A DNA stretch of 64,000 bases, taken from positions 42,316-106,315 of the forward strand of contig JABSOI010000019.1 of assembly GCA_013216015.1 (NCBI GenBank), written 5' to 3'. The position numbers and the translations under genes are program-made. This DNA is from Alteromonadaceae bacterium. Its GTDB lineage: Bacteria; Pseudomonadota; Gammaproteobacteria; Enterobacterales; Alteromonadaceae. Position 1 is the first letter of the stretch. Each line of letters starts with the position of its first letter. Below the pieces are notes generated by a model, which was not told where the DNA came from, made no database searches, and saw only the letters and a list, made by a program, of their open reading frames with translations. This document shows positions 9,375 through 47,858 of the stretch, in pieces.

Positions 9375-9385
9375 GCTGTAAATTC

Positions 9386-19129: not shown

Positions 19130-19134
19130 AACTG

Positions 19135-22124: not shown

Positions 22125-22210
22125 TTAATGCTCCCGAAGGTACATCCTTGCCTATTTATGATGCTGATTGAATGTCGTTATTTAATTATTCATTTATGCT
22201 GGAATTACTA

Positions 22211-26301: not shown

Positions 26302-28872
26302 ATGATACGAAAAATGATATCCAACAGGCTCAGTATTATGCTGCTACTATTTAGCCCTGTACTGTTAGCGGTAAAAGTTATTGCTTCAGAGCAAGTGCCT
26401 ACTGGCCAATTACCTGAAAATGTTGAACCCACACATTATCAATTAACCTTAAAAATAGATCCTGAACAGAAAAGGTTTTCTGGCCAAACGAGTATTAATC
26501 TTAAGATAAAAGAAGCAACAAGCCACTTTTACCTCAATGGTAAAGAGTTAACGATTAACTCGGTTGTCTTAAAAAACAGTCATGGTAAAACTTTTAAGGC
26601 GACGGTAAAAGACACCAGTGTTGAAGGAGTGATGAAAGTTACTGCAGATAAAAAATTATCAGCAGGAAATTACATTATTACTTTTGATTATAACGCTCCA
26701 TTTAATGAAAACCTTGAAGGATTGCACCGTGTAAAAGATGGTGATCAATATTATGCCTTCACACAAATGGAATCTATTTCAGCACGTTTAGCTTTCCCGT
26801 CATTTGATGAACCCCGCTTTAAAACAACATTTGATATAGAGTTTATTATCCCTGAAAAGCTCAAAGCTATTTCAAATACCCCAGAAGCTGAAACGAAGGA
26901 ATTAGCCGACGGTTGGAAAAAAGTTACCTTTGTTACCAGCAAACCATTACCAACTTATTTGGTTGCCTTTTTTGTTGGTGATTTTGACGTTGTTGAAATG
27001 CCTGATATGCCAGCAACAAGTTTAAGAAAAGATGCTATTCCGCTTCGAGGTATTGCAGCAAAAGGTAAAGGCAAAAAACTTGCTTATGCGCTGTCACAAA
27101 CCCAAACTGTGGTTGAAGCCCTGGAAGAATATTTTCAAGTTCCTTATCCCTATCGTAAATTAGACGTATTGGCGGTACCTGATTTTGCAGCCGGAGCTAT
27201 GGAAAATGCTGGCGCGATCACTTACCGTGAGCAACTGTTATTACTTGATGAAAAATCTTCAATTAATCAAAAACGTAATTCAATTTCTGTACAAGCACAT
27301 GAATTGGCACATCAATGGTTCGGTAATTTAGTCACACCAGTATGGTGGAATGATATTTGGTTAAACGAAGCATTTGCTACCTGGATGGCGGCAACTGTAT
27401 TAGAGCGTCAATTCCCCGGGGAGCAATGGCAGAGACAACAAATTCGAAGTTCAAAAAATGCGATGAACTCTGACTCTATTCCGTCAGCACGTAAAATTCG
27501 TAACCCGATAAAAAGTAATAGCGATATCATTACTGCGTTTGACGGCATTACTTATCAAAAAGGCTCAGGTGTGTTGTTCATGGTTGAAAACTTTATGGGT
27601 GAAGAAAATTTCCGTAAAGGTGTGCAAAAATACATGAATAAATATGCGTGGGGAAATACCACCGCGATTGATTTTTTTGAAACCATTGCCAGCGTATTAG
27701 AGCCCAAAAAAGCTGAAGCGGTTGTTAAATCTTTCAGAAATTTTGTTGAACAAGCAGGTGTACCTATTTTAAATATTGTTCAATCTTGCCAAAACGACAA
27801 AGCAGTATTAACCGTTGAACAACAAAGATATAAACCACTTGGTACTGAATATAAAGAAAATACTTTGTGGAGCATTCCTACTTGCATGAGTTATGAAGTC
27901 AATGGTGAAATCAAACAACAATGTGAAGTTATCTCAAAAGCTAAACAACAAATTACTCTGGATGGTGCAAGTTGTAATTCCTGGGTTATGCCTAACTCCA
28001 AAGCAGCGGGTTATTACCGTTTCAATTTTGACACTGCAGGTTGGCAAGCACTTCTTGTTAATTTGCATAAAGTAAGTTCTGTTGAAGCTAATGCCGTTGT
28101 AGACAGCATTAGCTCAGCATTTAACAGTGGTAATTTAACCGTACAAGATTTGATTGATGTTATTCCTTCAACATTATCGGCTGAGTCGTGGGAAGTAATC
28201 GTTTCAGGTACACGCACAATAGGGCTTTTGATCTTTTATGCAGATGAAGATGAGAAATCAACATTAAGAAAATTGGCGGGTGATTTATATCGTGAAAGTG
28301 CGAATCGAATTGGATTTGTTGATAATACTGAGTTAGATAAAAACAATCCGATAGACGCCAACCAGTTAAGAACGCGTTTAATTGATTTTATGGCCAGTAC
28401 AGCAAAAGATAAATTGTACCGCGAAAAATTAACGGCTATGGCGGTTAAATATATTGGTTATAAAGGTGATGGAAAGTTCCATGATGATGCGATAATTCCG
28501 GCATTGCGTGTTACGGCTATGTCTGTTGCTGTTCAAGAATTAGGACAACCTTACGTTGATGCTTTAATGGTGCATTTAAAAGCGTCTGCTGATGGCACAA
28601 TGCGTGGTCGTTTAATTAGCGCATTAACGGCAACTGAAGATCTGAAAATAGGTAAAGATTTAGTTGATTTTAGCTTAACGTCTGATGTTCGTGATAACGA
28701 AAAAACATCATTTTTATTTGGTTTAGTCAGGAAGAAAGAATTAGATGGAGTTATGTGGCCATGGTTAATGGCTAATTTTGATCAATTGATTGCTGGTTTA
28801 CCTACGAATTTTCAAAGTTTCACCCCTTACTTATTTTGGGTGATTGTAATGAAGTCAGGAACGAACGATTAG
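26302..28872 (+). CDS. Secreted M1-family aminopeptidase (aminopeptidase N-like); C-terminal end probably frameshifted (continues as ORF 28836-29021)
   Basis: Signal peptide. GAMEN exopeptidase motif. HELAHQWFGNLVT-X18-E zinc site. ERAP1-like C-terminal domain. Confidence 0.85.
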   Translation: MIRKMISNRLSIMLLLFSPVLLAVKVIASEQVPTGQLPENVEPTHYQLTLKIDPEQKRFSGQTSINLKIKEATSHFYLNGKELTINSVVLKNSHGKTFKATVKDTSVEGVMKVTADKKLSAGNYIITFDYNAPFNENLEGLHRVKDGDQYYAFTQMESISARLAFPSFDEPRFKTTFDIEFIIPEKLKAISNTPEAETKELADGWKKVTFVTSKPLPTYLVAFFVGDFDVVEMPDMPATSLRKDAIPLRGIAAKGKGKKLAYALSQTQTVVEALEEYFQVPYPYRKLDVLAVPDFAAGAMENAGAITYREQLLLLDEKSSINQKRNSISVQAHELAHQWFGNLVTPVWWNDIWLNEAFATWMAATVLERQFPGEQWQRQQIRSSKNAMNSDSIPSARKIRNPIKSNSDIITAFDGITYQKGSGVLFMVENFMGEENFRKGVQKYMNKYAWGNTTAIDFFETIASVLEPKKAEAVVKSFRNFVEQAGVPILNIVQSCQNDKAVLTVEQQRYKPLGTEYKENTLWSIPTCMSYEVNGEIKQQCEVISKAKQQITLDGASCNSWVMPNSKAAGYYRFNFDTAGWQALLVNLHKVSSVEANAVVDSISSAFNSGNLTVQDLIDVIPSTLSAESWEVIVSGTRTIGLLIFYADEDEKSTLRKLAGDLYRESANRIGFVDNTELDKNNPIDANQLRTRLIDFMASTAKDKLYREKLTAMAVKYIGYKGDGKFHDDAIIPALRVTAMSVAVQELGQPYVDALMVHLKASADGTMRGRLISALTATEDLKIGKDLVDFSLTSDVRDNEKTSFLFGLVRKKELDGVMWPWLMANFDQLIAGLPTNFQSFTPYLFWVIVMKSGTND

Positions 28873-29231: not shown

Positions 29232-29486
29232 ATGAACTTGAACACAAAAAAGATAGGTCAAATTATTTTATTGGCAAGCTCGCTTTTTACCATTAGTTAT
29301 ACCACGCAAGCAGAAACGCCGGAAAATCGAGCAAACAACAAGTTAGATTCAAACATTAATCAATTGTTAGCTTCTGAGAATCTGCCAGGTAGGGTGATGC
29401 TTGTGCGCAAAAATAATAAAATTATTCATCATGAAGCTTATGGATATGCAGACATTGAGTCACAAAAAGTAATATACGTGGTATAG
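29232..29486 (+). pseudogene. N-terminal fragment (84 aa) of a beta-lactamase/PBP-family serine hydrolase
   Basis: Signal peptide, then …LPGRVMLVRKNNKIIHHEAYGYADIESQK…. The ORF stops before the SxxK motif. Confidence 0.5.
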
Positions 29487-30358: not shown

Positions 30359-31219
30359 TTAAGTTGAAAGGGGCAGGCTGTCACAAAACCGAGAGCCTAT
30401 TCCCGACACAGTCTCCAGATATTTACCAGCAACGCCTAACTTTTTTCTTAATTTATAAATTTGGTTGTCGATGGCGCGATCGGTAATATAGTAGTTATCC
30501 CCTTTACTGTGAGAAATAATAGCATCCCGCGTAAATACGCGATTGGGCGATGACATTAATAAATATAGAATATCAAATTCCATTTTATGTAGTTTAACCG
30601 GCTCATCAAATAGCCTGACTTGTCGGGAAGGTACATCAATAAAAACACCGAGCAGTGAAAGTTGTTCGCTTGCGAGGGGGTCGGATAAACCCGATTGACG
30701 TCTTAAACTTGCTTTTATTCGGGCCACAAGCAGGCGGGGATTAAATGGTTTGGCAATGTAGTCGTCGGCATAACTTGCGAGTCCCTTTTCCATATCACTG
30801 ATATCTGCCTGATCAGTCAACATAATGATCAGTGGCATACTATTTCGGTGTTGTTGTAACAGTCGTTCGCAAAATTGATAGCCGTTCATACCCGGTAATT
30901 GAATATCAAGAACAATTAAATCAGGCTTTTCGTTGTTGCAATGTAACAATGCTGCTTCAGCGCTAATGACGCTCGCTACTGAGTAGTTTTCTTTTTGCAG
31001 GATATATACCCGTAATCATTCAAAATGCAGGTTTTGAAGCGTTTTAAAAGATTATCTACTACGTTGCTTTCAATCCCAATAGCCCGCTATTGCTCAATCA
31101 AGCGCCTTTTAGATAAACTTTCAAATTCACCTCAAATTCCCGCATCTTGAATGACCACGGGTATAAAGCACCATTTCACGGATATGCTCGTCATCTTCAA
31201 CTATTAATATTTTATTCAT
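30359..31219 (-). pseudogene. OmpR-family response regulator gene interrupted after codon 18 by MITE R3
   Basis: N-terminal piece 31166-31219 (MNKILIVEDDEHIREMVL). Then the 159-bp insertion. Then YILQKENYSVASV…PDLIVLDIQLPGMNG…winged helix. The inserted frame has a stop at 31016-31018. Confidence 0.7.
31007..31163. mobile_element. MITE R3 copy inserted in RR gene; TA target duplication (31005-06 / 31164-65)
   Basis: Ends are TACCCGT…ACGGGTA. Joining the flanks restores …REMVLYILQK…. Confidence 0.75.
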
Positions 31220-31350: not shown

Positions 31351-32160
31351 TTACCCCAATGCCTTTATTAAATTACTTTTATGCTTTTTGCCAACCCGAT
31401 AGTGTTGACCACCTTTGAGGTAAACAATATTGTCTTCTATATAGTCTATGTAGGCTTTATTGACTATGGCTGATTTATGGACACGAATAAAATCTGTCTG
31501 TGGTAAATATTCAGCAATGCCAGTCAAGGTTTTCAGGGTAAGTAAACAAGACTGGTCACGCCATACTTTGACATAATTACCATAAGCTTCAAGGACACTA
31601 ATTTCGCTTAGATCCACCCTGATCTGTTTGCGATCTACCTTGATTAAAATATGGGTAAGATTTTTCTCAGCCTGTTCTTTGATATTTGCGGGTGCAGCGG
31701 GTGCTTTTTCAGTGGTATCTTCAGATTGCAGATCCTGTTGGTTTTGTTGAACCTGTTGGCCTTGCTGAACCTTTTGACCTTGCTGAGACATGAGGCTATT
31801 GTGGCGGCTCAGGGCTTTATTCGTTGCCTGAAGAAAGCGGTCATATCGAAAAGGTTTCAGCAGATAATCGGTGACATCTAATTCATATCCCTGCAGTGCA
31901 TATTCCTGGTAGGCTGAGGTAATGATAACCTGAGGTTTATTGGGCAATACTTTTAGTAATTCAATGCCGGTTAGCACTGGCATTTGAATATCCAAAAAGA
32001 TCAAATCTACTTGCTGGTTATTTAGCCGTGTTAATGCCTCGGTGGCACTATAACACTGGCCTACAATTTCTATAAATGGAACTTCTTTGGCAAAGGTTAA
32101 AATAACATCATGGGCCAGCGGCTCGTCATCGATTATAAGTGTGCGTAATGTCATTGACAC
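31351..32160 (-). CDS. LytTR-family response regulator (REC, Q-rich linker, LytTR DNA-binding domain)
   Basis: LIIDDEP…DLIFLDIQMP. C-terminal FIRVHKSAIVN. Confidence 0.85.
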   Translation of the reverse strand: MSMTLRTLIIDDEPLAHDVILTFAKEVPFIEIVGQCYSATEALTRLNNQQVDLIFLDIQMPVLTGIELLKVLPNKPQVIITSAYQEYALQGYELDVTDYLLKPFRYDRFLQATNKALSRHNSLMSQQGQKVQQGQQVQQNQQDLQSEDTTEKAPAAPANIKEQAEKNLTHILIKVDRKQIRVDLSEISVLEAYGNYVKVWRDQSCLLTLKTLTGIAEYLPQTDFIRVHKSAIVNKAYIDYIEDNIVYLKGGQHYRVGKKHKSNLIKALG

Positions 32161-33788
32161 TCCAGAGTGAGATGAACATGGAAAGCATGCTGTTCATGGT
32201 TTATTTTCAAGCTGTATTTATCTTCATAGATCAAGGCCAAACGGCGCTGCAGGTTTTCCAGTCCTATGCCTAGTTGCGATGGCTTATAGTTACTTTCCAC
32301 CGAGTTACCACAATAAAACTTCAACGTATTGCCCTGCCTGCTGAGTTTAACCTTGAGCCAGGCATCTTCAAGTGATGGTTCTACGCCATGTTTAAAGGCA
32401 TTTTCAATTAAAATGATCAGCAATAACGGCGTAATATTGATGTTAGTTTCACTGTCGGCTGACTCTTCTTCAAAATCTACTTCAAACTGACATTTGTTGC
32501 TGACACGTACTTGCTGCAAGTCGAGATAATCTCGCAGGTATTGTACTTCTTCGGATAAAGGCACCGTTTTTTGACCTCCTTTATAAACAACAAAGCGCAG
32601 CAAACTGGCCAGTTGTTGCACTAGTTCAGGTGCTTTCTCTGATTTGGTCAGGCAAAGGGAATAGAGATTATTGAGGGTATTAAACAAAAAATGCGGATTA
32701 ATTTGTTGTTGCAGCAATAATAGTTCGGTATGAATATTTTGCTTTTCCATCTCTGCTAACTGCTGGCTTTTTTGTGCCCATTCTAATGCCAGAATTACCG
32801 GCAAACTGGTCAGCATAACGGCTAAAGCAAAAGAGCCATTTTGCCAATCAAAAGGGTTCTGGTTTTCGCTGATGATCATAGTATGTTCACCACTATTTAA
32901 TGGCAGCCATAATACCAGCTGGGCGGCAAGTGGATAACTGAACAGGATAAATAAAGCAGTAAACCAAAGGTAGTTGAAAATGCCATATCTGGCCATCACT
33001 TTGTTTACTAATATATGCCGGTTTATGTAGTAATAAGCAAAAATAATGGAATAGGTCAGCTGAATTTGCGCCCAGTAAATTAGGAAGTTATCCCAATGGA
33101 ATATAACTAATTTCAGGTCGATGACCATGTTATGTCCCGATTCAATTATCGGGTCGTTAAGCGGAGCAAACACTGCTGCCCAAAACAGGCTGAAAATTAA
33201 AGTTAAGGCAAACAAGCCATGATCTAATGTGAATTTAAATCTGAGAGGCTTTTTCTGTCTGCTTTGCAGCCATTTATTAAACAGTAAAGATGCTTCGATT
33301 ATCCAGATGAAAACAAAAGTCTCTAGTTGAATAAAGGGTAAAGCAGCCAGTTCCGGCAGGTTGTTTTCCAATATAAGCACAAGCAACGGATAGCCGAGAA
33401 AGACCAGACACCAGCACAGAATAGTTAGCTTTTTATTGAGTTGGATGTTGAGTTTGCTGTTGAGTTTGCTATTTTGCTTCCCTGTGAAGTTTTTAAATAC
33501 CAGTACCGGAGATATGAACAGGGTAAGCTGCAATAGTAAAACGACAAAATACCACCAGTCAGAATGGCCTGCCTGATTGGTTATCATCAAAGCTGGCGCC
33601 AATATAGCCACAGTAAAAGGCCATACTTGCCAATTGAACACCCCATTAAGCGAAGTAATCAGCTTGTTTAACTTCTCAGCAATTGATTTATGGCGGGATC
33701 CTGTTAATAAATGCACAAGGGTTCTCTGCTCAGCGATATTCTGAAATAAGTCATCATTTTGAACACATTGAGTAGATTTGTCACCCAA
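32151..33788 (-). CDS. LytS/YehU-type sensor histidine kinase (multi-TM N-terminus, His_kinase plus HATPase)
   Basis: QINPHFLFNTLNNLYSL motif. C-terminal N/G boxes. 10-nt overlap with the RR gene. Confidence 0.8.
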   Translation of the reverse strand: MGDKSTQCVQNDDLFQNIAEQRTLVHLLTGSRHKSIAEKLNKLITSLNGVFNWQVWPFTVAILAPALMITNQAGHSDWWYFVVLLLQLTLFISPVLVFKNFTGKQNSKLNSKLNIQLNKKLTILCWCLVFLGYPLLVLILENNLPELAALPFIQLETFVFIWIIEASLLFNKWLQSRQKKPLRFKFTLDHGLFALTLIFSLFWAAVFAPLNDPIIESGHNMVIDLKLVIFHWDNFLIYWAQIQLTYSIIFAYYYINRHILVNKVMARYGIFNYLWFTALFILFSYPLAAQLVLWLPLNSGEHTMIISENQNPFDWQNGSFALAVMLTSLPVILALEWAQKSQQLAEMEKQNIHTELLLLQQQINPHFLFNTLNNLYSLCLTKSEKAPELVQQLASLLRFVVYKGGQKTVPLSEEVQYLRDYLDLQQVRVSNKCQFEVDFEEESADSETNINITPLLLIILIENAFKHGVEPSLEDAWLKVKLSRQGNTLKFYCGNSVESNYKPSQLGIGLENLQRRLALIYEDKYSLKINHEQHAFHVHLTLECQ

Positions 33789-33935
33789 AGAATGACTAAG
33801 AACCCAAAATCAATGACCAATGAGGTGAGGTGGCTGATTAACTCTTTTCAGCTAAATAGAGACGTTGGTCATGGAAATAATCGTGTTGGTCAATTAGCTG
33901 TTTGTTAATATATTTCACTGTGCTTTACTGTTTTT

Positions 33936-33990
33936 CAATTAGCAATTAGCAATTAGCAATTAGCAAATAACAAATAACAAATAGAAAATA
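33936..33990. repeat. Heptanucleotide SSR (CAATTAG)x4 then (CAAATAA)x2 in the divergent promoter region
   Basis: Lies 33-90 bp upstream of the ABC ATPase start. Confidence 0.8.
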
Positions 33991-34022
33991 CAAAAAGTGA
34001 ATAAACAAAGGGGTGAATAATA

Positions 34023-34904
34023 ATGCTGATGATTTCCAACCTGAATAAAACCTATGATAACGGTGTTAAGGCTCTCGTAGATATTAATTTAACGATAAAG
34101 CAGGGCATGTTTGGTTTACTGGGTCCTAACGGTGCAGGAAAATCGACCCTGATGCGAACTTTGGCAACATTGCAAAGTCCAGACAGTGGTGAAATTCTGT
34201 TCAATGGTCATAACATTCAGCATGATCCGCAAGCGGTGCGCAGCCACCTTGGTTATTTACCGCAGGAATTTGGTGTATACCCAAAAATATCTGCCTTTAA
34301 TTTGCTAAATCACTTTGCTATTTTAAAGGGATTAACCGATAAAGTGACACGGCTTGAACAAGTTAATGCGCTATTGCAGCAAACTAATCTTTATCAACAC
34401 AGGAAAAAAGCAGTCAGCAGCTTTTCCGGTGGTATGAAGCAGCGGTTTGGTATCGCACAGGCGCTGCTGGGAACACCAAAATTGGTGATTGTTGATGAAC
34501 CTACAGCAGGTTTGGATCCCGAAGAACGTAATCGGTTTCATAACGTATTGGCAGACATCAGCGAAAATACCATAGTGATCTTGTCTACCCATATTGTGGA
34601 AGATGTCAGCAACCTTTGTCCCGATATGGCGATCATGGCTGCAGGTTCTATTATCAAACAAGGGCCACCGCAAAAACTATTGGCTCAGCTGGCTGGAAGT
34701 ATTTGGCGTAAGCATGTCAACAAGCAGGAGATCAGCGAATACCAGCAACAATTCAAGGTGATCAGTCAGCGGCTGGTGGCGGGCAAGGTTCAGCTGCATG
34801 TGCTGAGTGAAAACTGCCCTGCGGCAGGTTTTGAACCGGTACAGGCGGATCTGGAAGACTTGTATTTCTCTGCGATTAATGGCATCGCGGCCAGAGGAAA
34901 TTAA
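34023..34904 (+). CDS. ABC transporter ATP-binding protein
   Basis: Walker A GPNGAGKST. Signature FSGGMKQR. Walker B LVIVDEPTAGLD. H-loop. Confidence 0.9.
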   Translation: MLMISNLNKTYDNGVKALVDINLTIKQGMFGLLGPNGAGKSTLMRTLATLQSPDSGEILFNGHNIQHDPQAVRSHLGYLPQEFGVYPKISAFNLLNHFAILKGLTDKVTRLEQVNALLQQTNLYQHRKKAVSSFSGGMKQRFGIAQALLGTPKLVIVDEPTAGLDPEERNRFHNVLADISENTIVILSTHIVEDVSNLCPDMAIMAAGSIIKQGPPQKLLAQLAGSIWRKHVNKQEISEYQQQFKVISQRLVAGKVQLHVLSENCPAAGFEPVQADLEDLYFSAINGIAARGN

Positions 34905-34905
34905 T

Positions 34906-37900
34906 ATGATGTTATCTTTGCTTAAATTTGAATGGCAGCTGCATTCCCGACAACCAGTATTTATGCTCGGGCTATTGGTCTGTGTTTTTTTTGGTGGTTT
35001 TTTAATTCAAAATCAATCGGTAGATTCAGATGTTTTGGTGGCTGGTCCCTATAACATGGCAAACAGTATCTGTATTCTGGCGTTAATGATAGTACCTTTT
35101 TTAGTTGGTGCATTTACTGGTAATGCCATTGTCAGAGACCGTAATGCCAGAATTACAGAACTGATATTCAGTACGCCCATAACCAAAATGCACTACCTAT
35201 TGTCAAGATGGTTGGGTCTGGTGGCTATCAGTAGTCTGGTATTTACATCTGCCATTATTGGTATTTTAGTCAGCTTGTTATTTTCCGACACTGGTGAAAT
35301 TGGCTTTGCCCATACTTTGTGGAGTTTGTTGTGGCCCTTGATAATTTTGATATTGCCAGGTATCGCGCTGCTGTCTAGTATATTGTTTGCAGTGGGTTTA
35401 TTCAGTAATCAAAACATTGCAGTATATATTGTCGCTGTCATAATTTTTTTGCTCTATCAATTATTGGCGGTCTATTCAGGTTCGCCGCTAATGGCTAATC
35501 CTATTGCACCCGACGAGACGCTAAAACAAATACTTTCTGGTATTGATCCTTATGGTGCCACCTCGTTTTTTGAACAGGTAAAATACTGGAGTCCAACGCA
35601 GCGTAATAGCCAGTTTTTTGAGTTAAAGGGGATGCTGTTATATAACCGGGTGGGGGTATTATTACTGTCTGTGGTTATTTTAGCTTTGTGTTATCGCAAG
35701 TTTGACTTTAAGTTAGCTAAGCATAAGACAGCCTCGAAAAGTAAAGCCGGCATTATTGAAAAATCGACTGTAGCAGAAATACAATACCGATATCAGCCCG
35801 TGCAACCCAATACCGGGATTAAGGCCAGCTGGCTGGCTTTTACTGAGCAATGTAAACTGGAATATTTATCAACCCTGAAAACGCGGGTGTTTTTTGCTGT
35901 ACTCGTTTTTTGGACTGTTGTGTTAGTGACCGAAATAATCGAAGGCCTTTCGTCACTTGAAAATTTGGGAACCACTCCAATTGCGTCCACCGCAGAGGCC
36001 TTGTGGCGCTTTCAATATGATGTTTTACCACGTTTTATCACCCTGTTTTTAGTCTATTTCGTGGCAGAAATGGCTTGGCGTGACGAAGAGAACAATGTCG
36101 CTAGTTTCATATATTCCAGCCCAGTTGCGAATATTAGTTTGTTTTTTGCCAAACTGATTGCATTACTGTTGATCCCCGTTACTTTTATAACTATTGCAAT
36201 TGGAATTTCATCCGGTTTACAAGTGATATACGGGGGGCAGGTTGAATGGTCATTATATTTGTCGCTCTATTATTATTCGGGACTGCCTATGGTGTGTATA
36301 GCGGCACTTTGTTTGTTTATTCACAGTGTCAGCCCTAATAAATTTGTCGGCATGAGTATTAGCTTTTCTCTGGTGATATTGGCGATAACCTCGTTAGGTG
36401 GCCAACTGGGACTTGAACATGGGTTGTTTAAATTCTCCACCAGTCCGCTAATGCAATATTCCGATCTCATCGGTTTTAATTCTACCTCTGATGCCTTTAA
36501 CGGTTATATAAAATACTGGCTCAGTTTGTCTGCCGTTATGGTGTTACTGGGTTATGGTTTCTACCGTCGTGGTGTTGGCGTACCTTTAAGGTTAAGAATA
36601 CAATATATTGGTAAACAAGGTGTTGGTAAACAAGGTGTTGGTAAACAATGGGGCTATCAAGGTCTGGCGTTGATGGTAGTTTCTGTATTGGCTTCAGGCT
36701 ATTTTGGCAGTGCGGTGTTTTATCAAACCAATGAAGTTGCCCATTATCAATCATCACAAGAGAGAGTGAACTGGCGTGCGGAGTATGAGCGTAAATATGA
36801 CCAATATGAACATATGCTCAGCCCGAAAGTAGTCAATATAAAAACTCACATGGCCTTGTACCCTGAGCAACACCGTTATCAAATGAAAGCTGACTTTACT
36901 TTGGTTAATTCCCACTTTGAGTCATTAAATCAGATTTTGGTCAGTACAGATGCCGATGTCCACTATCAGAATGTCGCCATTAGCGGTGCAACTCTGAGCC
37001 ATTACGACGCAGACTTTGGGCAATATTTGTTTAAATTAAATGCACCAATGTTACCTGGAGATCGCTTGCAGATGACTTTCACTGCTTCGCAAGTACAAAA
37101 TGGTTACCTGGGCCTGCAGCGAGATAACCTGATAACGCCCGGTTTCAGTTATGTACAAGCGCTGCGTTATATGCCGTTTTTTGGCTTTAACCATCATTAT
37201 CAGCTTAAATCTCCCTCGTTACGCCGGGATCAAGGTTTGCCAGAGCTGGCACCAGCATTGTCTTTAGAGCAAGCTGTTGATGAGGTTAAAGGAGACTTTT
37301 CTGCTGATTACGATTGGCTGGAATTTGAAACCGTACTGTCTACTTCGGCCGATGAAGTGGCTATAGCACCGGGTAAATTAATCAAAAAGTGGAAAAATAA
37401 TGATCGTAACTACTACCACTATAAAACAGCCGGACCGATCAGAAATGTGATCAGCTATATATCCGGCCGTTATAAGATGGCCAGCCGATTCGTAGACGGC
37501 ATTGAGTTACAAGTTTATTATCACGCAGAACATCAGGATAATGTTGAACATACCCTGGATGCCATGAGTGCATCGATAAATTATGCCAATAAGCATTTCG
37601 GTCGTTATCTTGGTGAACAACTGCGTTTGATGGAAGTGCCAAGGAATTTGGGATTGTCTGGTTATGCTATGCCTGAAACCATTTTAATCTCAGAGCTTGA
37701 GGGGTTTCGTACGGATCTGAGCAATAAAGAGGCGTTTGATCAGGTATTTCGTCGAACTGCCCATGAAGTTGCCCATCAATGGTGGGGACATGGGTTGGAC
37801 AGTGCAGCTGTAGAGGGTGGTACGGTTCTGGTGGAAACATTGGCAAAATACACCGAACTAGTACTATTGGAGCAGCGTTATGGCAATGAATATGTGAGAC

Positions 37901-38559
37901 GACTGATGAAATATGAACATCGGCGTTATTTTAATGGCCGTGGTTATAGCAGTGAGCATGAGTTACCTTTGTATCGGGCCGACGCAAGATATTTGGTTTA
38001 TAGCAAAGGGGCGGTGGCAATGTATGCGCTTAAGAACATTTTGGGAGAAGAGGCTATCAACCAGGCATTGCGTCAATTAATGCAAAACCATAAATATCCG
38101 AAAATACCTGCCACAACGCTAGACCTGATAGCAGCATTGAAACAGACGACTACAGCTAATAACTATCCGGTAATTGATCGCTGGTTAAAGCAAATTATTA
38201 TTGATGATTTGTCGATAACCTCGGCCAGTTATCAGCAACTCGGCAATAGTCACTATAAAGTAAATGTTTGTCTGCAAAGTCAGCAAACCAAGGAAGACGG
38301 GCTAGGCAACAGCTTTGCGATATCGACTGAAACCACAGCATGGTTAGGGGTTTTCAGTGAACATCCTGATAACTTGATTAGCAGGGGCTCGGATAGTGCG
38401 GTATTAAAAATAGCTAAAGTGGCGGTGAAATCAGAAGGTAATTGTCTGAGTTGGACAGTCGCTGGGAAACCAACTCATATCGCCATCGATCCTTTCTATC
38501 AGAAGTTGGATCAGCAACGTGACAACAATGTATCGGTTCCGGTCTTTGCATCAAAATAG
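34906..38559 (+). CDS. ABC-2-type permease fused to M1-family zinc-peptidase domain (about 1217 aa)
   Basis: ATG 1 nt after the ATPase stop, with a GGAAA RBS. About 12 TMs in the first ~620 aa. C-terminal HEVAHQWWGH…E zinc site and GYAMPE in place of GAMEN. Confidence 0.8.
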   Translation: MMLSLLKFEWQLHSRQPVFMLGLLVCVFFGGFLIQNQSVDSDVLVAGPYNMANSICILALMIVPFLVGAFTGNAIVRDRNARITELIFSTPITKMHYLLSRWLGLVAISSLVFTSAIIGILVSLLFSDTGEIGFAHTLWSLLWPLIILILPGIALLSSILFAVGLFSNQNIAVYIVAVIIFLLYQLLAVYSGSPLMANPIAPDETLKQILSGIDPYGATSFFEQVKYWSPTQRNSQFFELKGMLLYNRVGVLLLSVVILALCYRKFDFKLAKHKTASKSKAGIIEKSTVAEIQYRYQPVQPNTGIKASWLAFTEQCKLEYLSTLKTRVFFAVLVFWTVVLVTEIIEGLSSLENLGTTPIASTAEALWRFQYDVLPRFITLFLVYFVAEMAWRDEENNVASFIYSSPVANISLFFAKLIALLLIPVTFITIAIGISSGLQVIYGGQVEWSLYLSLYYYSGLPMVCIAALCLFIHSVSPNKFVGMSISFSLVILAITSLGGQLGLEHGLFKFSTSPLMQYSDLIGFNSTSDAFNGYIKYWLSLSAVMVLLGYGFYRRGVGVPLRLRIQYIGKQGVGKQGVGKQWGYQGLALMVVSVLASGYFGSAVFYQTNEVAHYQSSQERVNWRAEYERKYDQYEHMLSPKVVNIKTHMALYPEQHRYQMKADFTLVNSHFESLNQILVSTDADVHYQNVAISGATLSHYDADFGQYLFKLNAPMLPGDRLQMTFTASQVQNGYLGLQRDNLITPGFSYVQALRYMPFFGFNHHYQLKSPSLRRDQGLPELAPALSLEQAVDEVKGDFSADYDWLEFETVLSTSADEVAIAPGKLIKKWKNNDRNYYHYKTAGPIRNVISYISGRYKMASRFVDGIELQVYYHAEHQDNVEHTLDAMSASINYANKHFGRYLGEQLRLMEVPRNLGLSGYAMPETILISELEGFRTDLSNKEAFDQVFRRTAHEVAHQWWGHGLDSAAVEGGTVLVETLAKYTELVLLEQRYGNEYVRRLMKYEHRRYFNGRGYSSEHELPLYRADARYLVYSKGAVAMYALKNILGEEAINQALRQLMQNHKYPKIPATTLDLIAALKQTTTANNYPVIDRWLKQIIIDDLSITSASYQQLGNSHYKVNVCLQSQQTKEDGLGNSFAISTETTAWLGVFSEHPDNLISRGSDSAVLKIAKVAVKSEGNCLSWTVAGKPTHIAIDPFYQKLDQQRDNNVSVPVFASK

Positions 38560-38630
38560 ACTTTACGTATCTTCAAATAGCCAGAATAAGTCTGGCTATT
38601 CACCTCAGTTTTCTCATCAGCGCAATTATC

Positions 38631-39074
38631 ATGGTCCAAAGGAAAAATCTCAAAATGTTAAATAAAATTCTGCTCATGATATTAACCCTATCTTTGTCAA
38701 CAGGAGCTTTTTCAACAGTACATTTATCAACCGTAGCTAGCAGTAACTCTGCGCCTGATAACGAAATTTTAACTGCACAACATGCTTTTTTTCAGGGTGA
38801 TACCAGACTAGCCGAGAAACTGTTGGCTGGCGAGTCGGAGTATCAGTCATTGGCTTTAGCGCAACTGCAGGTGATGCTGTGGATCGGGCGGGAAGAAGCT
38901 GACAAAGCAACGGAGTTACTATTAAAGTTGCAAAAAAGATATAGTTCCAATGCAGACTATCATTATTTCGCTGGCGGTATGTGGCGACAATTAGGTCATC
39001 AGGTTAGCGTTTGTTCCAAGATTAAATATTATCGTCGAGCTGTTTTGCCGCCTATATTCTTGCCGGGAAATTAG
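38631..39074 (+). CDS. Secreted TPR-like protein, N-terminal part (likely same gene as 39125-39679, frameshifted)
   Basis: Signal peptide. A third frame bridges the two ORFs (…AAYILAGKLAPDNARYVTKQASVYGQLDMMGG…). Confidence 0.35.
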   Translation: MVQRKNLKMLNKILLMILTLSLSTGAFSTVHLSTVASSNSAPDNEILTAQHAFFQGDTRLAEKLLAGESEYQSLALAQLQVMLWIGREEADKATELLLKLQKRYSSNADYHYFAGGMWRQLGHQVSVCSKIKYYRRAVLPPIFLPGN

Positions 39075-39124
39075 CTCCGGACAACGCCAGATATGTAACG
39101 AAACAGGCCAGCGTTTACGGACAG

Positions 39125-39679
39125 TTGGATATGATGGGGGGTGACAGCAAAAAGCAACGGCCTATTCTAGCCAAAGTTCAGTCGCTGAACTCACAATATG
39201 GCTTAGTAGCGGCGATGGATTTAGCTCAAAACGAAGAAAACCATAAACTTGCAGCCCAATTGGCTGAACAAGCCGTCTCTCAATATCCCAATAGTTTTTT
39301 ACTGTTAGTTAGAGCCGCTAAAATGCATTCATCACCTTTAAAAAATAAGATAAAAGCTCAACAACTGTATGCTCAGGCTTGTCAGTTACCAGCCCAATCA
39401 GGGCTAGACAGAATAAACTGGATATCGAGTTGTTATCAAGTAGAACACTTGGCCGGGAAAACTAAAAATTTTGACTTAGTGGTTATTGCCATGCAACGCT
39501 TGTTGGCTGTTAATCAATTGGCAACAAGTGAAAATGATCAGGCTCGGTTGTATTTGGCCCAGATGGCAAATGAAGTTGGCCAAACAGCACTAGCTAAACA
39601 ACAATATAACCTCCTCGCTATTGGGGCACTGGACAAAAAGCTCCGCAAAAAAGCGAGGATGAAATTGAAAGATTTGTGA
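39125..39679 (+). CDS. TPR-like protein, C-terminal part
   Basis: Helical repeat sequence. Confidence 0.35.
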   Translation: MDMMGGDSKKQRPILAKVQSLNSQYGLVAAMDLAQNEENHKLAAQLAEQAVSQYPNSFLLLVRAAKMHSSPLKNKIKAQQLYAQACQLPAQSGLDRINWISSCYQVEHLAGKTKNFDLVVIAMQRLLAVNQLATSENDQARLYLAQMANEVGQTALAKQQYNLLAIGALDKKLRKKARMKLKDL

Positions 39680-39728
39680 CCCTAGTCTTCAAAGGATCTT
39701 AATTGAATTGGTTATGTCCCAGTTATCT

Positions 39729-39876
39729 GTTGCTGATTCATTAAGTTGTTATTTTTCAAACTCGTAGTGCGCACATTTATGTGCGCCTTAAAGTAATGCG
39801 TGGATAAATCCACGTTCTACGGATTGCTCGAATAAATTTACATGGATGTGTTCTTCTCGGTTTTTAAATTTTAACT
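39729..39876. repeat. R2 element
   Basis: See 19135-19282. Confidence 0.7.
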
Positions 39877-40050: not shown

Positions 40051-40066
40051 AACTATTGTAGACACA

Positions 40067-40214
40067 TTTAACTGTGGCTGACTCATTAAGTCGTTATTTT
40101 TCAAGCTTGTAGTGCGCACATTTATGTGCGCCTTAAAGTAATGCGTGGATAAATCCACGTTCTGATTGCTCGAATAAATTTTCATGGATGTGTTCTTCTC
40201 GGTTTTTAAATTTA
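40067..40214. repeat. R2 element
   Basis: Third R2 copy, giving an R2-R1-R2 cluster. Confidence 0.7.
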
Positions 40215-40261
40215 ACAGCCACACTAAACTGCGACATAGCCAATAGAGTTGCCTATGTCGC

Positions 40262-43200
40262 TTATTTATCTTTTGATAATTCCCTGCTTATTTTTTGAAT
40301 ATGTGATTCTGAATTATTGCTCCTGTTTTGAGAGGAAACATTAAGTGTCTTTAAAGTATCTATCATTGCTAAATCAACATCTTTACGGCTTTGTAAAGTG
40401 GTTACCAGTGGCGTTAAGAAAGATTCAAGGCTTTGAGAAAACAAAGATAAAGTTTTTTCTAATTCAGTATTCTCAGTATTTTCGGGTTTTTCTACATTCA
40501 CTTGCAGTTTAAGTTTAGCGAGAGTTTCGTTCAGTTGCTCTAAACCACCTGATTGTGGCTGCTGTAATGCGCTGCCAATTGTAGATAGGCCTTGTTGTAA
40601 TAAAGATATTTGACTGGCAATAGTTGCCAGGGGATCACCACCATCCCCTAAGTTCTGATGACGAACAAAGTCGGCTTTAATTTGCTTCCAGCGCTCTGTT
40701 TGTTCTTTGGTTTGCTTATTACGTAATTCAGCCAGTTTCAGCAGATTTTCTTCAGCACCTACCGTTAAGGTTTGCGCTTCGCCACGGTAATGATCACTAA
40801 TAAGCTGTTCTAACTCTTCATCTGTCATCACAGGCACTACTTTTTCAGCCATTTTATTCATATTGCGGTAACTACCCTGCAATTTAAATGGTGGTTCAGT
40901 GCGATATTTATCGTCTTGGGCAGCCGAGGCAATATACTGTTCATTTGCCTTGAGTACGGTTTGCTGGATTTTACGGATCCGTTTGATCACAGCCACAATT
41001 TCATTAACTTCAGCTTGTGAATAGCCATACTTTAATTCGTTCAGCGAAATTGGTCCGCCATCTGCCATTTGAACCAGCTGATACAAATCATCCATATCAC
41101 GGGTAGCAAGTGGCGCTATATAAGAGTTACTGGTTAAACTGTTTTCAATGAAACTTAATGAAAATTCATGTTCACGGCCACTTAAAGTATCCCCTAAATT
41201 GTAAATGTCGGCACGGTTTGCCAGCATATCAGGAATAGTAAATGCCTCACCTGATTCCGTATACGGATTGCCCGCCATTACTACGGCAAACTTTTTACCG
41301 CGCATATCATAAGTTTTGCTTTCACCGTTCCAAACGCCGTCTACCCGTCTTGAGCCATCACAAAGGGAAATGAATTTTTGTAGAAACTCAGGATTAGTAT
41401 GCTGAATGTCATCTAGGTATAACATTACGTTATTGCCCATTTCAAAGGCTAAATTGATTTTTTCAACTTCACTTTTTGCTGTCGAGTTATTTGCCTGCGC
41501 GGGATCTAATGACAATTGGTCATGACCAATAGAAGGGCAGTTCACTTTGACGAATGTCATCCCCAGTTTACTGGCCACATATTCAATAAGTGTTGTTTTA
41601 CCGTAACCCGGAGGCGAAATAAGTAATAATAATCCCATTAAATCGGAACGTTTATTATTGCCTGCAGCCCCAATTTGTTTGGCTAAATTGGTGCCGATAA
41701 TAGGGAAGTAAACATCGTTGATTAATTTATTACGAACAAAAGAAGCTAATGCACTAGGTTTAAACTCATGTAATTTCAGTCGTTTACGCTGTTTCTCAAT
41801 TACTTGCTGTTTAAGTTGATGGAAATTAGTAAAAGCGGGTACTTGTTCATTGCAAAAACGTCGAAGTCGAGTGATGAATTCCTGGTAACTGATCAATATT
41901 TCACGTTCTTTAATACGTGCATGTTGACCAAGCAAGCCAGTAATTTTACCCTCGGTATTTGCCGTTGAGGAATAAAATTCCATTTGATTAGTGAATGTCA
42001 TGAAGCTTGCCGCTTCAATAAGCAAATCACTATCAACACCGTTTTCCTGATGATTGGCAAATGATTGTAACCAGCCAAGATGCAATTGATATTTCAGCGC
42101 CAGACTTGAGCATGCCCCCAGGGCAGAGTTTAATTGCGATGTCAGACTTTTATGTTTTAATTGAGTTTGCAGTTGTCTGACGAGTTCAGCACTGGCTTCT
42201 TTGTTTACAAATGTCTGTTTGCCCTGAGCGAATTCTTGGATCAGGTAGTCGGCTGCTAATGAAACATCACAACTTAACCAAGATTGCTCTGTTACAAGAC
42301 ATGCTAAAGCTTGTGCCAGTTCACCACAAAGTTGAGGACGTAATTGACTCGAACCAAAAGTTTCTTCCATAAGATGTAAATTAAGACAACGATTCACCAG
42401 ATCCTGACGGGTTTTCTCATTGAGTTCAGTTTGAAAATAAACCAAAGCTAATCGTCGCTCTGGTGCAGCATAAGCAAGTAAGCCTACGGATGCACGTAAA
42501 GTTAATAATTCAGCTAAAATTAAGCTGGCATCTGAGTCGTGCACGCCTTTGTCATAACCTTCCTGATAACGAGGTTCGGCAAATTTTTGTATAAGTTTAA
42601 GCAGTTTTTTATTATTCAGCGCATCAGTCAGCTCGTTAACTGCTGCTACGCCGTTAGCTTCAGCTTCAAATAAAATGCTGGCGGCTAAATATTCTGCCCG
42701 ATATACCTGATCACTTTCTGAAATTAAATTTTGTTGCCACAAATATTCACTGCCGGCGAATAAAGTTGGATCCAGTGATTCAAAATAATCACTGCCGCTG
42801 ATGTGCAATACCATTGCCTGACCCCGTGGCAATAACGTTAATTCTAATTTTTGTCGGTTAACAGAAAATTGATGTTCGCCAATTTTAACCAGGCTGCCAT
42901 CGGCTGAATAAATGTCGGTTTTATCACGCAGTGCGCGAATGCCTTGCTCTTTAGCATTTTTTAACTGGGCATCAATATCGTCCGCACGTACGTTGTCATC
43001 TAAACTGCGTAACTGTTCGCTGAGTGCACGTAATTTGGAGACCATAGGATCGGCGGCGAAATAACTATTGAGTTTGTCTTGATCATTGAAAGCCTGGCTT
43101 CGACGATTAACTCCGGCAATAATGCGTTCTGCTGCGGTCATTAAATTTAAACAACGACGTTGCTGAGCATCCATAAGTTGCTGTTTATGTTGTTCAAAGT

Positions 43201-45550: not shown

Positions 45551-45751
45551 TTAAAACTCCATGAAATCTTTTGTATTTTTACACTTTAGTACTTTTACAG
45601 TTTTGTACTTCAGTACTAATATAATTGTTAGGTCGCTGTTTGCTTACATAAAAAGCTTCAATAAATAGCTTCGACAGCACGTTTCGAAAAAATCTTTTCG
45701 TGAACAGGCATGTCGAAGTTAACTTTTTACGACCTACGCAAGATGACGCGT

Positions 45752-47734: not shown

Positions 47735-47858
47735 GTGTATTTCCTCTTATAAAAACGGGCTGCCACGGTTGTCGTGGCAACTTAAACTAATATTTTGTAA
47801 ATGTATCGGTGCTTAATATGCTGGTGCTTAAATTATTGATGCTTAAATTTTTGAATAA

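Follow-up and report, generated by a model that had tools for sequence, protein, structure and literature searches.

Organisation of the locus

The window, that is, the whole 64-kb stretch of Alteromonadaceae DNA analysed here, holds a genuine, intact gene module in which a sensor pair is divergent from two exporter genes, the second of which encodes a permease fused to a peptidase.

31351-32160, minus strand: response regulator (RR) ORF as called, with REC and LytTR domains (Pfam)
31351-32154, minus strand: probable revised extent of RR, with REC, a Q-rich repeat linker and the LytTR DNA-binding domain
32151-33788, minus strand: histidine kinase (HK) ORF as called, PF06580 His_kinase
32151-33716, minus strand: more plausible extent of HK, with about 8 TM and the PF06580 catalytic core; the frame is open to TTG 33788
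34023-34904, plus strand: ABC ATPase (Pfam ABC_tran, 2.2e-32)
34906-38559, plus strand: fusion ORF, start ATG 34906, 1217 aa
38631-39679, plus strand: frameshifted copy, in two ORFs, of the gene for a 345-aa secreted TPR-like protein

The first four genes are as an earlier sequence-only reading of this DNA had described them, including the spacing of exactly 1 nt between the ATPase stop (TAA, 34902-34904) and the fusion ATG found in the ORF check. The fifth is different. What had been taken for a secreted TPR-like gene is split into two ORFs, 38631-39074 and 39125-39679, that lie in separate frames; the T-run 39043-39046 marks the shift. By tblastn, the intact proteins of two related loci (L084 and L085) match the window in two segments, in frames +2 and +1, at 45-57% identity (E 1e-91 to 1e-93), and the intact homologues match Pfam TPR_14. 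The gene is confined to one clade, being intact in relatives and broken in the window, and a 99.7%-identical contig (L082) carries the identical frameshift. The window also holds a disrupted OmpR-type regulator gene.

The sensor pair and the shared intergenic region

RR is matched by Pfam Response_reg (2.6e-19) and LytTR (2.7e-14); the NCBIfam LytR and BtsR models match it as well, yet far under their cut-offs. Its start is probably ATG 32154, favoured because of the ATGA overlap with the HK stop, and GTG 32160 is also possible. TRF places an 18-nt in-frame repeat inside the gene at 31726-31786.

HK (Pfam His_kinase, 6e-26) had been called a LytS-type kinase. This holds for its catalytic core, which is of the LytS/YehU type, and not for its sensor part, as a Pfam profile search gave no match to 5TMR-LYT even at E<=10. 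The protein has about 8 TM segments by hydropathy, and neither a recognisable sensor domain nor a large periplasmic loop. When it is aligned with five orthologues, conservation begins only about NWQVWPF. A start at TTG 33788 is unlikely, because LytTR boxes abut that codon; GTG 33716 is more plausible and gives a 521-aa HK, as called on L082. The intergenic region, 234 bp between the ORFs as called, is then about 306 nt long. The expectation that LytTR systems typically respond to peptides belongs to AgrC/ComD-type kinases and does not extend to PF06580 kinases such as HK. To our knowledge, PF06580 kinases of known signal sense small metabolites or the membrane state, not peptides. YpdA/YpdB, for instance, is a pyruvate-sensing system with such a kinase (PMC4847170).

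The region between the two operons contains the following features.

33793-33841, minus strand: three putative LytTR-type half-sites, TTAATCA / TTGGTCA / TTAGTCA, in a 21-bp register, toward the HK-RR operon
33864-33892, plus strand: putative LytTR box GTTGGTCAT-N12-GTTGGTCAA, toward the ABC operon
33887-33914, plus strand: candidate sigma-70-like promoter of the ABC operon, TGGTCA-16-TATATT (consensus scan)
33936-33994, no strand assigned: heptanucleotide SSR, (CAATTAG)4(CAAATAA)2 CAAATAG AAAATAC (TRF)

Conserved LytTR-type direct repeats (GTTGGTCA, 21-bp register) thus face both operons, in the architecture of published LytTR sites (PMC4847170). The pattern TTRRTCA-N14-TTRRTCA occurs three times in the 64-kb window, against 0.02 expected, and all three occurrences are in this region. 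The HK-facing half-sites form a putative autoregulation site and have minus-strand equivalents in L001, L083, L084 and L085, while the ABC-facing repeat precedes the ATPase ATG by 96-104 nt in L083, L087, L086 and Pedobacter L006. A more general pattern, GTTNNTCA-N13-GTTNNTCA, gave nine matches in 7 of 90 loci; in the six of these with a located ATPase start, the matches are upstream of it, and L082 has the window's own sequence.

The proximal half-site of the plus-strand box overlaps the -35-like TGGTCA of the candidate promoter, whose position is suggested by the consensus match. The heptanucleotide SSR, noticed earlier, is real. It is a 59-nt lineage-specific insertion and, being sited between the putative promoter and the RBS, is probably in the 5' UTR; the distance from box to ATG is 159 nt in the window versus 96-104 nt in the relatives. 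L082 is broken at this SSR, and its right-hand contig end is 21 nt shorter.

The ATPase and the membrane part of the fusion

The ATPase motifs are intact (Walker A, the signature SGGMKQR, Walker B with the catalytic Glu, and the H-loop), and its identity to related loci is 51-82%. It is directly upstream of the fusion in nearly all related loci with DNA reaching there, and downstream in L023. The fusion itself begins with a complete membrane unit.

34906-36723, plus strand: fusion residues 1-606, two tandem ABC-2 membrane domains (TM1-6, TM7-12) and TM13
36608-36648, plus strand: 15-nt in-frame tandem repeat, GKQGV x3 (TRF, 100% matches)

Pfam ABC2_membrane_2/3/4 match above their curated cut-offs, and the fold is that of the type V exporters (NosY, PmtD, Rv1217c). 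Where about 12 TMs had been counted before, there are 13, namely 6+6 and an extra anchor at residues 587-605. In 77 homologues, the loops 267-322 (net +6.2) and 553-586 (net +5.0) are rich in K/R, whereas alternate loops are net negative. With 13 helices, not 12, and by the positive-inside rule, TM13 is predicted to lead the chain out, so that the topology prediction places the M1 domain in the periplasm. The GKQGV repeat sits in the basic cytoplasmic loop preceding TM13, where AF2 confidence is low at 572-579.

The M1 peptidase domain

The rest of the chain is a peptidase.

36724-38559, plus strand: fusion residues 607-1217, M1 metallopeptidase module, predicted periplasmic (Foldseek, secondary structure)
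37660-37677, plus strand: GYAMPE, residues 919-924, aligned to GAMEN of ERAP2 (HMMER)
37762-37836, plus strand: zinc site HEVAH (953-957) ... E977, HEXXH-X19-E (sequence motif)
37999-38001, plus strand: catalytic Tyr1032 (alignment)

It comprises M1 domains I (beta), II (catalytic) and III (beta-sandwich) and lacks domain IV. Pfam Peptidase_M1 matches residues 937-1093 above its curated cut-off, and Foldseek finds ERAP2, ERAP1, APN and PepN (E 3e-18 to 1e-16, about 600 columns). Conservation across the fusion protein is highest in the catalytic domain. Its zinc site is intact as had been proposed, though with a spacing of X19, one residue over the canonical X18. Across 77 sequences E977 and Y1032 do not vary, nor does HEXXH, although those loci were retrieved by the pattern HEx[AG]HQWW; in the independently found set A1, H953, E954, H957, E977 and Y1032 are all invariant. 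The motifs thus indicate that the catalytic centre is complete.

The alteration of GAMEN, also seen before, is borne out by the ERAP2 alignment: the Glu which holds the amino group of the substrate is Pro in GYAMPE. At this position, the consensus is G-x-A-[ML]-P-x in the subfamily and AQ[AS]F[AP][NG] in the main clade, and the Glu is found in no family member aligned. The whole family is without both this residue and domain IV. Since the glutamate that anchors the free N-terminus and the capping domain IV are both absent, the cleft is probably open and not confined to classical aminopeptidase action.

Distribution and linkage to the sensor pair

A transporter-tethered peptidase under LytTR control had been thought an unusual module, yet the fusion architecture is widespread among bacteria and already has a database name. 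About 1339 homologue clusters (50% identity) were found at E<=1e-30 in Bacteroidota, Proteobacteria, Acidobacteriota and Gemmatimonadota; among the 150 best, all but a few shorter fragments have a length of about 1200 aa. Relatives occur in at least 443 species genomes, and 26 full-length homologues are 24-62% identical. RefSeq calls them "ABC transporter permease/M1 family aminopeptidase". The literature search found no paper on the permease/M1 fusion and no functional study of any family member, in keeping with the earlier belief that the architecture exists in databases but is functionally uncharacterised. An artefactual fusion was ruled out by the independent full-length homologues and the RefSeq naming.

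The window protein belongs to a deep subfamily, in which the divergent sensor pair is present in 15 of 16 loci; together with the conserved boxes, this upholds the proposed link to LytTR regulation. Most family members, which form the main clade, have neither a LytTR partner nor a dedicated regulator, and members of the two subfamilies occur together in some genomes or genera. On clustering the neighbours of 75 loci, HK and RR were the sole recurrent ones, always divergent, and no conserved precursor or biosynthetic gene was found beside the module.

Comparison with known systems

The closest relatives are the RefSeq family members, such as WP_057499785.1 (Stenotrophomonas maltophilia) and WP_115901588.1 (Tenacibaculum gallaicum). 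They share its full-length layout of about 1200 aa, in which a double ABC-2 permease is followed by an anchor helix and M1 domains I-III, and have the same ATPase gene directly upstream; the window protein aligns with them end to end at 25-31% identity. However, in place of GAMEN the window subfamily reads G-x-A-[ML]-P and not AQ[AS]F[AP]N, and it is almost always accompanied by the divergent LytTR two-component system.

Among the type V exporters, Rv1217c of Mycobacterium tuberculosis (Rv1217c-Rv1218c, PDB 8K1M-8K1P) is, like the fusion, a single-chain double permease. It exports a hydrophobic drug, rifampicin and not a known peptide, from a periplasm-facing cavity (PMC11406275). Unlike the fusion, to which it is 12-15% identical, it lacks both a 13th helix and a periplasmic enzyme domain. 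PmtCD of Staphylococcus aureus is under the GntR-type repressor PmtR and is not known to be controlled by a LytTR system. In this Gram-positive exporter (PDB 6XJH) the half-size permeases are separate and there is no peptidase. PMC12623860 and PMC7527219 describe export of amphipathic PSM peptides and immunity of the producer to them, and PMC9974410 concerns secretion of amphipathic peptides from cytoplasmic and membranous milieus. NosDFY (PDB 7O0Y) is an ABC-2 complex serving the periplasmic NosD, which is a separate beta-helix protein and not a fused peptidase; it is dedicated to N2O reductase assembly, and nos genes are absent here.

With regard to regulation, NatR is a LytTR-family regulator and NatAB an ABC-2 type transporter, and the nat loci are neighbours. 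The NatK-NatR system controls the NatAB operon in Bacillus subtilis (Ogura et al. 2007, Microbiology 153:667, as given in PMC3498285). The likeness is one of arrangement, with a two-component system over an ABC transporter operon; NatB, however, lacks a peptidase domain, and Na+ is the substrate reported. Peptidase-containing ABC transporters (PCATs) share the concept of an ABC transporter with a peptidase, and Bce-type modules for the sensing of peptide antibiotics share another, in that an ABC transporter and a two-component system are regulated together in response to membrane-active peptides.

PepN, ERAP1/2 and APN have in common with the fusion the fold of domains I-III, the zinc ligands and the catalytic Glu and Tyr. 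The fusion differs from canonical M1 enzymes in its X19 spacing, in lacking the GAMEN glutamate and the ERAP1_C domain IV, and in being membrane-tethered. A secreted PepN-like gene elsewhere in the window (26302-28872) has all canonical M1 features.

Possible functions of the module

For the module as a whole, we infer tentatively that its likeliest task is to expel peptides embedded in the membrane, using ATP, and to couple this expulsion with their hydrolysis. The choice of substrate class is an extrapolation: the structural analogues of the membrane domain on which it draws also number exporters of compounds other than peptides (ABCG2, Rv1217c) and, in NosDFY, a partner machine that does not transport.

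It is unlikely that the ATP cycle in the NBDs acts by mechanotransmission, moving the helices so as to open, close or position the tethered peptidase. In that case the complex would act as a periplasmic protease gated by ATP, and no substrate would pass through the membrane.

Rather doubtful, too, is a housekeeping role, in which extraction and hydrolysis would clear endogenous membrane peptides, constitutively and not in defence; cleaved signal peptides and membrane-protein fragments would be the candidates. The wide spread of the ATPase-fusion pair, mostly without a dedicated regulator or other conserved neighbours, the co-occurrence of both subfamilies and the tie of EcsAB, an ABC-2 transporter of B. 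subtilis, to membrane peptide/protease homeostasis all argue for it. The window copy, however, is under a dedicated two-component system with a positive-feedback architecture, which suggests induction by a specific signal; in a housekeeping family, the sensor-linked subfamily would be the inducible paralogue. The main clade, being without a dedicated regulator, is as compatible with housekeeping as with a stress response.

The export/processing idea of the sequence-only reading, taken here as export of a peptide product of the cell itself (a bacteriocin or signal) with the periplasmic M1 domain trimming the precursor, is quite improbable. It would make the module an outside-the-membrane analogue of the LytTR-quorum-regulated, peptidase-containing ABC transporters, and several Firmicutes peptide-export loci are indeed controlled by LytTR regulators. 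The peptidase is, moreover, fused to an exporter. Nevertheless, export and processing are disfavoured because no conserved precursor or biosynthetic gene adjoins the module, kinase and regulator being the only conserved partners; nor was any conserved small ORF found in the window flanks or in six close loci. The kinase is of the PF06580 type, not the AgrC/ComD pheromone-receptor type, and the transporter is of type V, whereas PCATs have the type IV fold.

Finally, the broken genes in the same window might hint that the fusion arose by misassembly or a spurious frameshift, or that its M1 domain is a dead relic. The chance of this is negligible: hundreds of independent genomes, complete chromosomes included, encode the full-length protein of about 1200 aa in a single ORF, the independent contig L082 encodes an identical protein, and the catalytic residues are invariant in the most conserved region.

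Under the preferred reading, expulsion coupled to hydrolysis, the polytopic, intramembrane-type PF06580 kinase would report membrane disturbance or transporter load and phosphorylate the LytTR regulator. The latter would bind the direct repeats (consensus GTT[GA][GA]TCA, 21-bp spacing), which point toward both operons from the promoter region that these share, and switch on its own operon together with the two-gene ABC operon. The resulting machine would consist of two copies of one ATPase and one 1217-aa chain, in which the pair of type V (ABC-2) membrane domains would be followed, via the 13th helix, by the periplasmic M1 domain. Fuelled by ATP, it would expel hydrophobic or amphipathic peptides, either foreign membrane-active ones or endogenous membrane-trapped ones, from the inner membrane or cytoplasm into the periplasm, and the tethered peptidase would hydrolyse them at the exit, preventing re-insertion. 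The module would be a self-contained and probably autoregulated one in the envelope.

Organisation of the module

The module occupies two divergent operons in the window, and all four of its genes are intact: the histidine kinase and the LytTR response regulator (the sensor pair), the ABC ATPase, and the fusion of an ABC-2 double permease with an M1 peptidase domain.

Features of the module and of its intergenic region
31351-32160, minus strand: response regulator, REC and LytTR domains (Pfam)
32151-33788, minus strand: histidine kinase, PF06580 His_kinase domain (Pfam)
33793-33841, minus strand: three LytTR-type half-sites in a 21-bp register
33864-33892, plus strand: LytTR-type box, GTTGGTCAT-N12-GTTGGTCAA
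33936-33994: heptanucleotide SSR
34023-34904, plus strand: ABC ATPase (ORF map, Pfam)
34906-38559, plus strand: fusion ORF, 1217 aa (ORF map, Pfam)

Given a regulator start at the ATG at 32154, the kinase and regulator genes share an ATGA overlap. The TAA stop of the ATPase gene is separated from the fusion ORF by 1 nt, and the layout drawn earlier from the sequence alone, this spacing included, is matched by the ORF map.

The fusion family

The first homologue search gave 26 full-length relatives of the fusion (1098-1234 aa, 24-62% identity). Besides these, an identical copy is present on an independent metagenome contig. With phmmer, 1339 clusters were found at E<=1e-30 among 1.84 billion cluster representatives, the count of more than 1300 referring to clusters at 50% identity. 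Among the best 150 of the 1339, nearly all are about 1200 aa long and align end to end, with a few shorter fragments. With each species represented by a single genome, at least 443 genomes carry a relative, and these belong to the Bacteroidota, the Alpha-, Beta- and Gammaproteobacteria, the Acidobacteriota and the Gemmatimonadota. The carriers include Stenotrophomonas maltophilia, Tenacibaculum, Sphingobacterium, Janthinobacterium and Brevundimonas. The closest relatives (42-62% identity) all come from uncultured metagenome contigs or MAGs. In RefSeq, these proteins are named "ABC transporter permease/M1 family aminopeptidase".

The full-length relatives, the clusters, the genomes and the RefSeq name together rule out an assembly or frameshift artefact, which the sequence-only reading had named among the outcomes that would refute it. 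Because the homologues are so widespread and already named, the architecture is also not rare, and "unusual" is an overstatement for the fusion. The accompanying belief, that the architecture exists in databases yet is functionally uncharacterised, was borne out: the name exists, and a literature search on the fusion found no study of it.

The membrane part and its topology

Three Pfam models, ABC2_membrane_2, _3 and _4, match the fusion at 49.1, 42.9 and 36.8 bits, each over its curated cut-off. Hydropathy and an AlphaFold2 model of residues 1-1200 (mean pLDDT 83.9, pTM 0.78) agree on two modules of six helices each, with a basic linker (267-322) between them. A second basic loop (553-586), which holds GKQGV three times in frame, is followed by a thirteenth helix (587-605). 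Across 77 homologues, the N-terminus and the loops L2-3, L4-5, L6-7 (+6.2), L10-11 and L12-13 (+5.0) are net-positive, and L1-2, L3-4, L5-6, L7-8, L9-10 and L11-12 are net-negative. By the positive-inside rule, TM13 would take the chain outward, and hence residues 607-1217, with the M1 domain, are predicted to be periplasmic. The earlier count of about 12 helices thus gives way to 13, while the side of the M1 domain, which it had left between periplasm and cytoplasm, is now placed by prediction in the periplasm. Conserved periplasmic loops were also considered as an interface for the peptidase; these loops are not better conserved than the rest, and the claim was dropped.

The fold of the membrane part is like that of the solved type V exporters and unlike other ABC types. 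Its best Foldseek match is the single-chain double permease Rv1217c, over about 600 columns. In the Rv1217c-Rv1218c complex, a single permease chain is paired with two copies of the ATPase (PMC11406275). By analogy, one ATPase gene next to one double permease implies that the complex of this module would likewise hold two ATPase copies per permease chain. The motifs of the ATPase are intact (Walker A GPNGAGKS, signature SGGMKQR, Walker B LVIVDE and the H-loop His), and among subfamily models a DrrA-like one fits it best, at 1.9e-55 and under the cut-off of that model.

The M1 peptidase part

Pfam Peptidase_M1 matches residues 937-1093 at 43.2 bits against a cut-off of 27.7. Similarly, Foldseek aligns the peptidase part with ERAP2, ERAP1, APN and PepN over about 600 columns, with E values of 3e-18 to 1e-16. 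In the model, the N-terminal beta domain, the catalytic domain and the beta-sandwich of M1 enzymes are present, and the chain ends after the beta-sandwich; the helical domain IV (ERAP1_C) is missing. In free M1 enzymes, this domain caps the cleft. Some M1 members likewise lack it, and its absence is compatible with M1 membership.

Along the entire fusion protein, conservation is highest in the catalytic domain. Residues H953, E954, H957, E977 and Y1032 are invariant in all three alignments of homologues (A1, A2 and the 77-sequence set). The zinc motif reads HEXXH-X19-E and exceeds the canonical form by one residue; the intact HEXXH-X18-E reported earlier therefore holds for the ligands but not for the spacing.

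In the exopeptidase motif of M1 enzymes (GAMEN, or GXMEN), the Glu binds the free amino group of the substrate. The window has GYAMPE at this position, as had been noticed before, with Pro in place of Glu, and the loss extends to the family, since Glu is found there in 0 of 77 members. The consensus is G-x-A-[ML]-P-x in the sensor-linked subfamily to which the window belongs and AQ[AS]F[AP][NG] in the main clade. Because this Glu is absent family-wide, classical aminopeptidase specificity cannot be assumed from the sequence of the fusion, and the loss of the anchor residue predicts a non-classical one. An internal control is offered by a secreted PepN-like gene of the window (26302-28872, plus strand) with GAMEN, HEXXH-X18-E and ERAP1_C. 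This four-domain M1 protein has a signal peptide and its GAMEN at residue 298, and its gene is 2.5 kb away from the sensor pair.

The sensor pair and its linkage to the fusion

About eight helices with short loops between them span the membrane in the kinase. No sensor domain can be recognised in it, and 5TMR-LYT gave no match to it even at E<=10. It is probably an intramembrane sensor. The regulator scores 104.5 bits against the LytR equivalog model (cut-off 375) and 116.1 against BtsR (cut-off 246), and neither protein of the pair attains the LytSR or BtsSR cut-offs. By these profiles the pair belongs to the LytSR/BtsSR superfamily and is an orthologue of neither system. The original label of a LytS/LytTR system thus survives for the REC-LytTR regulator and the PF06580 kinase, but not for the LytS part, with 5TMR-LYT and a LytSR equivalog match both missing.

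The ATPase gene lies directly upstream of the fusion gene in nearly all related loci with enough DNA, at 51-82% identity; in L023 it lies downstream instead. Apart from it, only two neighbours recur among 75 loci: the kinase, in 10 of them, and the LytTR regulator, in 9, nearly always upstream and on the opposite strand. Clustering of ORFs of at least 90 aa around these 75 loci gave no other partner conserved in more than five, and no conserved small ORF of 20-120 aa was found around the module in six close loci.

In a neighbour-joining tree, the window forms a deep subclade with L001, L083-L087, L002, L004-L007 and L010. A divergent sensor pair is present in every member except L010. Three more relatives, at 30-37% identity and outside the tree, also have it, so that, with these counted, the pair is linked to the fusion in 15 of 16 loci. 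Only four scattered loci of the main clade have it. A profile of LytS/LytTR neighbours had been proposed earlier as a check, and these counts tie the pair to the subfamily of the window.

Some individual loci may be recorded here. L010 has no adjacent sensor pair, yet GTTGGTCA-like boxes stand upstream of its ATPase gene. The Algicola MAG DT_2 holds two fusion paralogues, L003 and L010. Tenacibaculum species differ in carrying either the sensor-linked or the main-clade form (L004 versus L070). At L090, a second His_kinase and LytTR pair (8629-10424) lies directly 3' of the fusion gene.

Putative operator repeats and the SSR

Published LytTR sites consist of two repeats of 9-11 nt, 11-13 nt apart (PMC4847170). 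The repeats of the window fit this layout and stand beside a putative promoter: the proximal plus-strand repeat overlaps a -35-like TGGTCA, with TATATT 16 nt further on. The predicted operator motif is made of GTTGGTCA repeats in a 21-bp register. The pattern TTRRTCA-N14-TTRRTCA has three matches in the 64-kb window against 0.02 expected, all of them in the 33793-33892 region. Matching repeats are present in the intergenic regions of L001, L083-L087 and the Pedobacter locus L006, and in L083, L086, L087 and L006 the ATPase start codon follows the plus-strand pair at a distance of 96-104 nt. Since the repeats are conserved and have the architecture of published LytTR sites, we infer that the regulator would directly control the kinase-regulator operon as well as the ABC operon through these predicted sites.

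The heptanucleotide SSR noted earlier in this region was confirmed. The distance from box to start codon is 159 nt in the window and about 100 nt in the relatives, and the difference equals the 59-nt heptamer array. On this basis the SSR is best described as an insertion particular to this lineage; it follows the putative -10 and probably lies in the 5' UTR. In L082, a 99.7%-identical contig, a gap falls exactly at the array, and the right-hand contig end appears 21 nt shorter, which suggests that the copy number varies between the two, with assembly collapse as the alternative. In a phase-variable locus, the copy number of an SSR would alter promoter spacing or reading frame and would differ between close strains; the array is at most a tentative candidate for such a role. 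As a source of extra LytTR half-sites the SSR was rejected, its unit TTAGCAA agreeing at only 5 of 7 half-site positions.

In-frame tandem repeats are found at 31726-31786 (18 nt; Q-rich linker of the regulator), 33436-33470 (12 nt; kinase), 36608-36648 (15 nt; the GKQGV repeats in the cytoplasmic loop of the fusion) and 38693-38735 (15 nt; the TPR-like gene downstream). In an alignment of kinase orthologues, the repeat insertion is missing from the relatives. Together with the heptamer array, these repeats point to a repeat-prone genome.

Neighbouring genes

The secreted TPR-like gene described downstream of the fusion is real as a family, with homologues intact in L084 and L085, but the window copy is a frameshifted version of that 345-aa secreted protein. 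The frameshift, at the T-run 39043-39046, is common to L082. The gene is confined to the closest clade and is split or truncated also in L086 and L087; it is thus accessory and outside the core of the module. A repeat element of about 100-150 bp with the hairpin CGTGGATTTATCCACG occurs at 19009-19280, 39720-39818 and 40065-40216, two of the copies being just 3' of the TPR-like gene.

On the other side, an OmpR-type response regulator (30359-31219, minus strand) is apparently disrupted. Its 196-aa ORF (30359-30949) is without the first 37 or so receiver-domain residues, and a separate small ORF (31127-31219) holds the matching N-terminus, MNKILIVEDDEHIREMVLY. The short repeat at 31112-31165 recurs, identical but inverted, at 22209-22262, and this points to the insertion of a small mobile repeat. 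An 84-aa ORF (29232-29486, plus strand), which matches only the first 42 positions of a beta-lactamase family profile, is probably a gene fragment and a further sign of gene decay in the window.

In the segment at 40262-48497 (minus strand), a protein of 1762 aa combines DUF3686 ('ATPase involved in DNA repair') and DUF7902 with an AAA domain, and proteins of 660 and 212 aa with no Pfam match follow it. None of the three matched the PADLOC defence models. Peptidase genes near the module comprise M61 with PDZ (L085, 498-2309), M13 and M19 (L083, 1-2687), PepQ/M24 (L010, 2738-4063), M23 (L089, 1-911) and the PepN-like gene of the window. A peptide-catabolic island was considered for them, and by inspection they were judged compatible with chance.

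Proposed function

The module may, tentatively, be read as a machine for the defence or cleaning of the envelope. The kinase would sense a signal at the level of the membrane, possibly with the transporter as co-sensor, and the phosphorylated regulator would bind the repeats and switch on both operons. Powered by ATP, the type V exporter would then expel a substrate of hydrophobic or amphipathic character, such as a membrane-embedded peptide, from the membrane or the cytoplasm. At the periplasmic face, the tethered peptidase with its open cleft would cleave the exported substrate as an endo- or exopeptidase.

Peptides are favoured as the substrate because the fixed partner of the exporter is a peptidase under strong purifying selection. 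The second reason is by analogy: published accounts (PMC7527219, PMC9974410, PMC12623860) describe PmtCD-type ABC-2 exporters as expelling amphipathic peptides and protecting the producer.

Two other explanations are credible. The module could be an ATP-gated protease that transports nothing, following a logic like that of NosDFY, or it could carry out the housekeeping clearance of endogenous membrane peptides. Maturation of an exported peptide product of the cell itself is argued against, as no conserved biosynthetic or precursor gene lies beside the module in the 75 loci or in the six close ones; clearance or detoxification is therefore preferred over it.

Comparison with known systems and significance

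The peptidase-containing transporters known as PCATs have an N-terminal cytoplasmic C39 peptidase, a type IV exporter and an adjacent gene for a double-glycine precursor. The fusion, in contrast, has no C39 match, a type V fold and no conserved small ORF nearby, and the two thus differ in peptidase class, peptidase position, membrane side and transporter fold. Bce-type modules combine an FtsX-family permease bearing a large extracellular domain with an OmpR-type regulator and an intramembrane-sensing kinase. The permease of the window is ABC-2 and not FtsX, and its regulator is of the LytTR type; the sole likeness is a kinase without a large periplasmic sensor loop. With NatKR/NatAB the module shares the idea of a two-component system beside an ABC-2 pump. 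NatAB has no peptidase, and the likeness drawn here concerns the regulatory idea. The components are all of known kinds, and the fusion family is already catalogued. To our knowledge, however, no characterised system joins a type V exporter to a covalently attached periplasmic metallopeptidase.

If the extract-and-destroy reading is true, the module would be the Gram-negative answer to LanFEG, PmtCD and Bce, which confer peptide resistance, and the more than 1300 protein clusters of the family would gain a function. If the exporter hands its substrate to its own peptidase, no ABC exporter known before it would link translocation with extracytoplasmic hydrolysis, and the hand-over would plausibly be a new mechanism of resistance against membrane-active peptides. 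The family is large, bears only a descriptive database name, and is present in Stenotrophomonas maltophilia and in many soil and marine Bacteroidota and Proteobacteria; the genus Tenacibaculum, also a carrier, includes fish pathogens. Experimental handles are provided by the predicted topology, the operator motif, the family-wide loss of the anchor residue and a subfamily that includes the cultured Tenacibaculum gallaicum DSM 18841, with Pedobacter among its MAG-derived loci. The observation is solid, and its value lies not in rarity but in predictions that can be put to the test across a large, functionally uncharacterised family.
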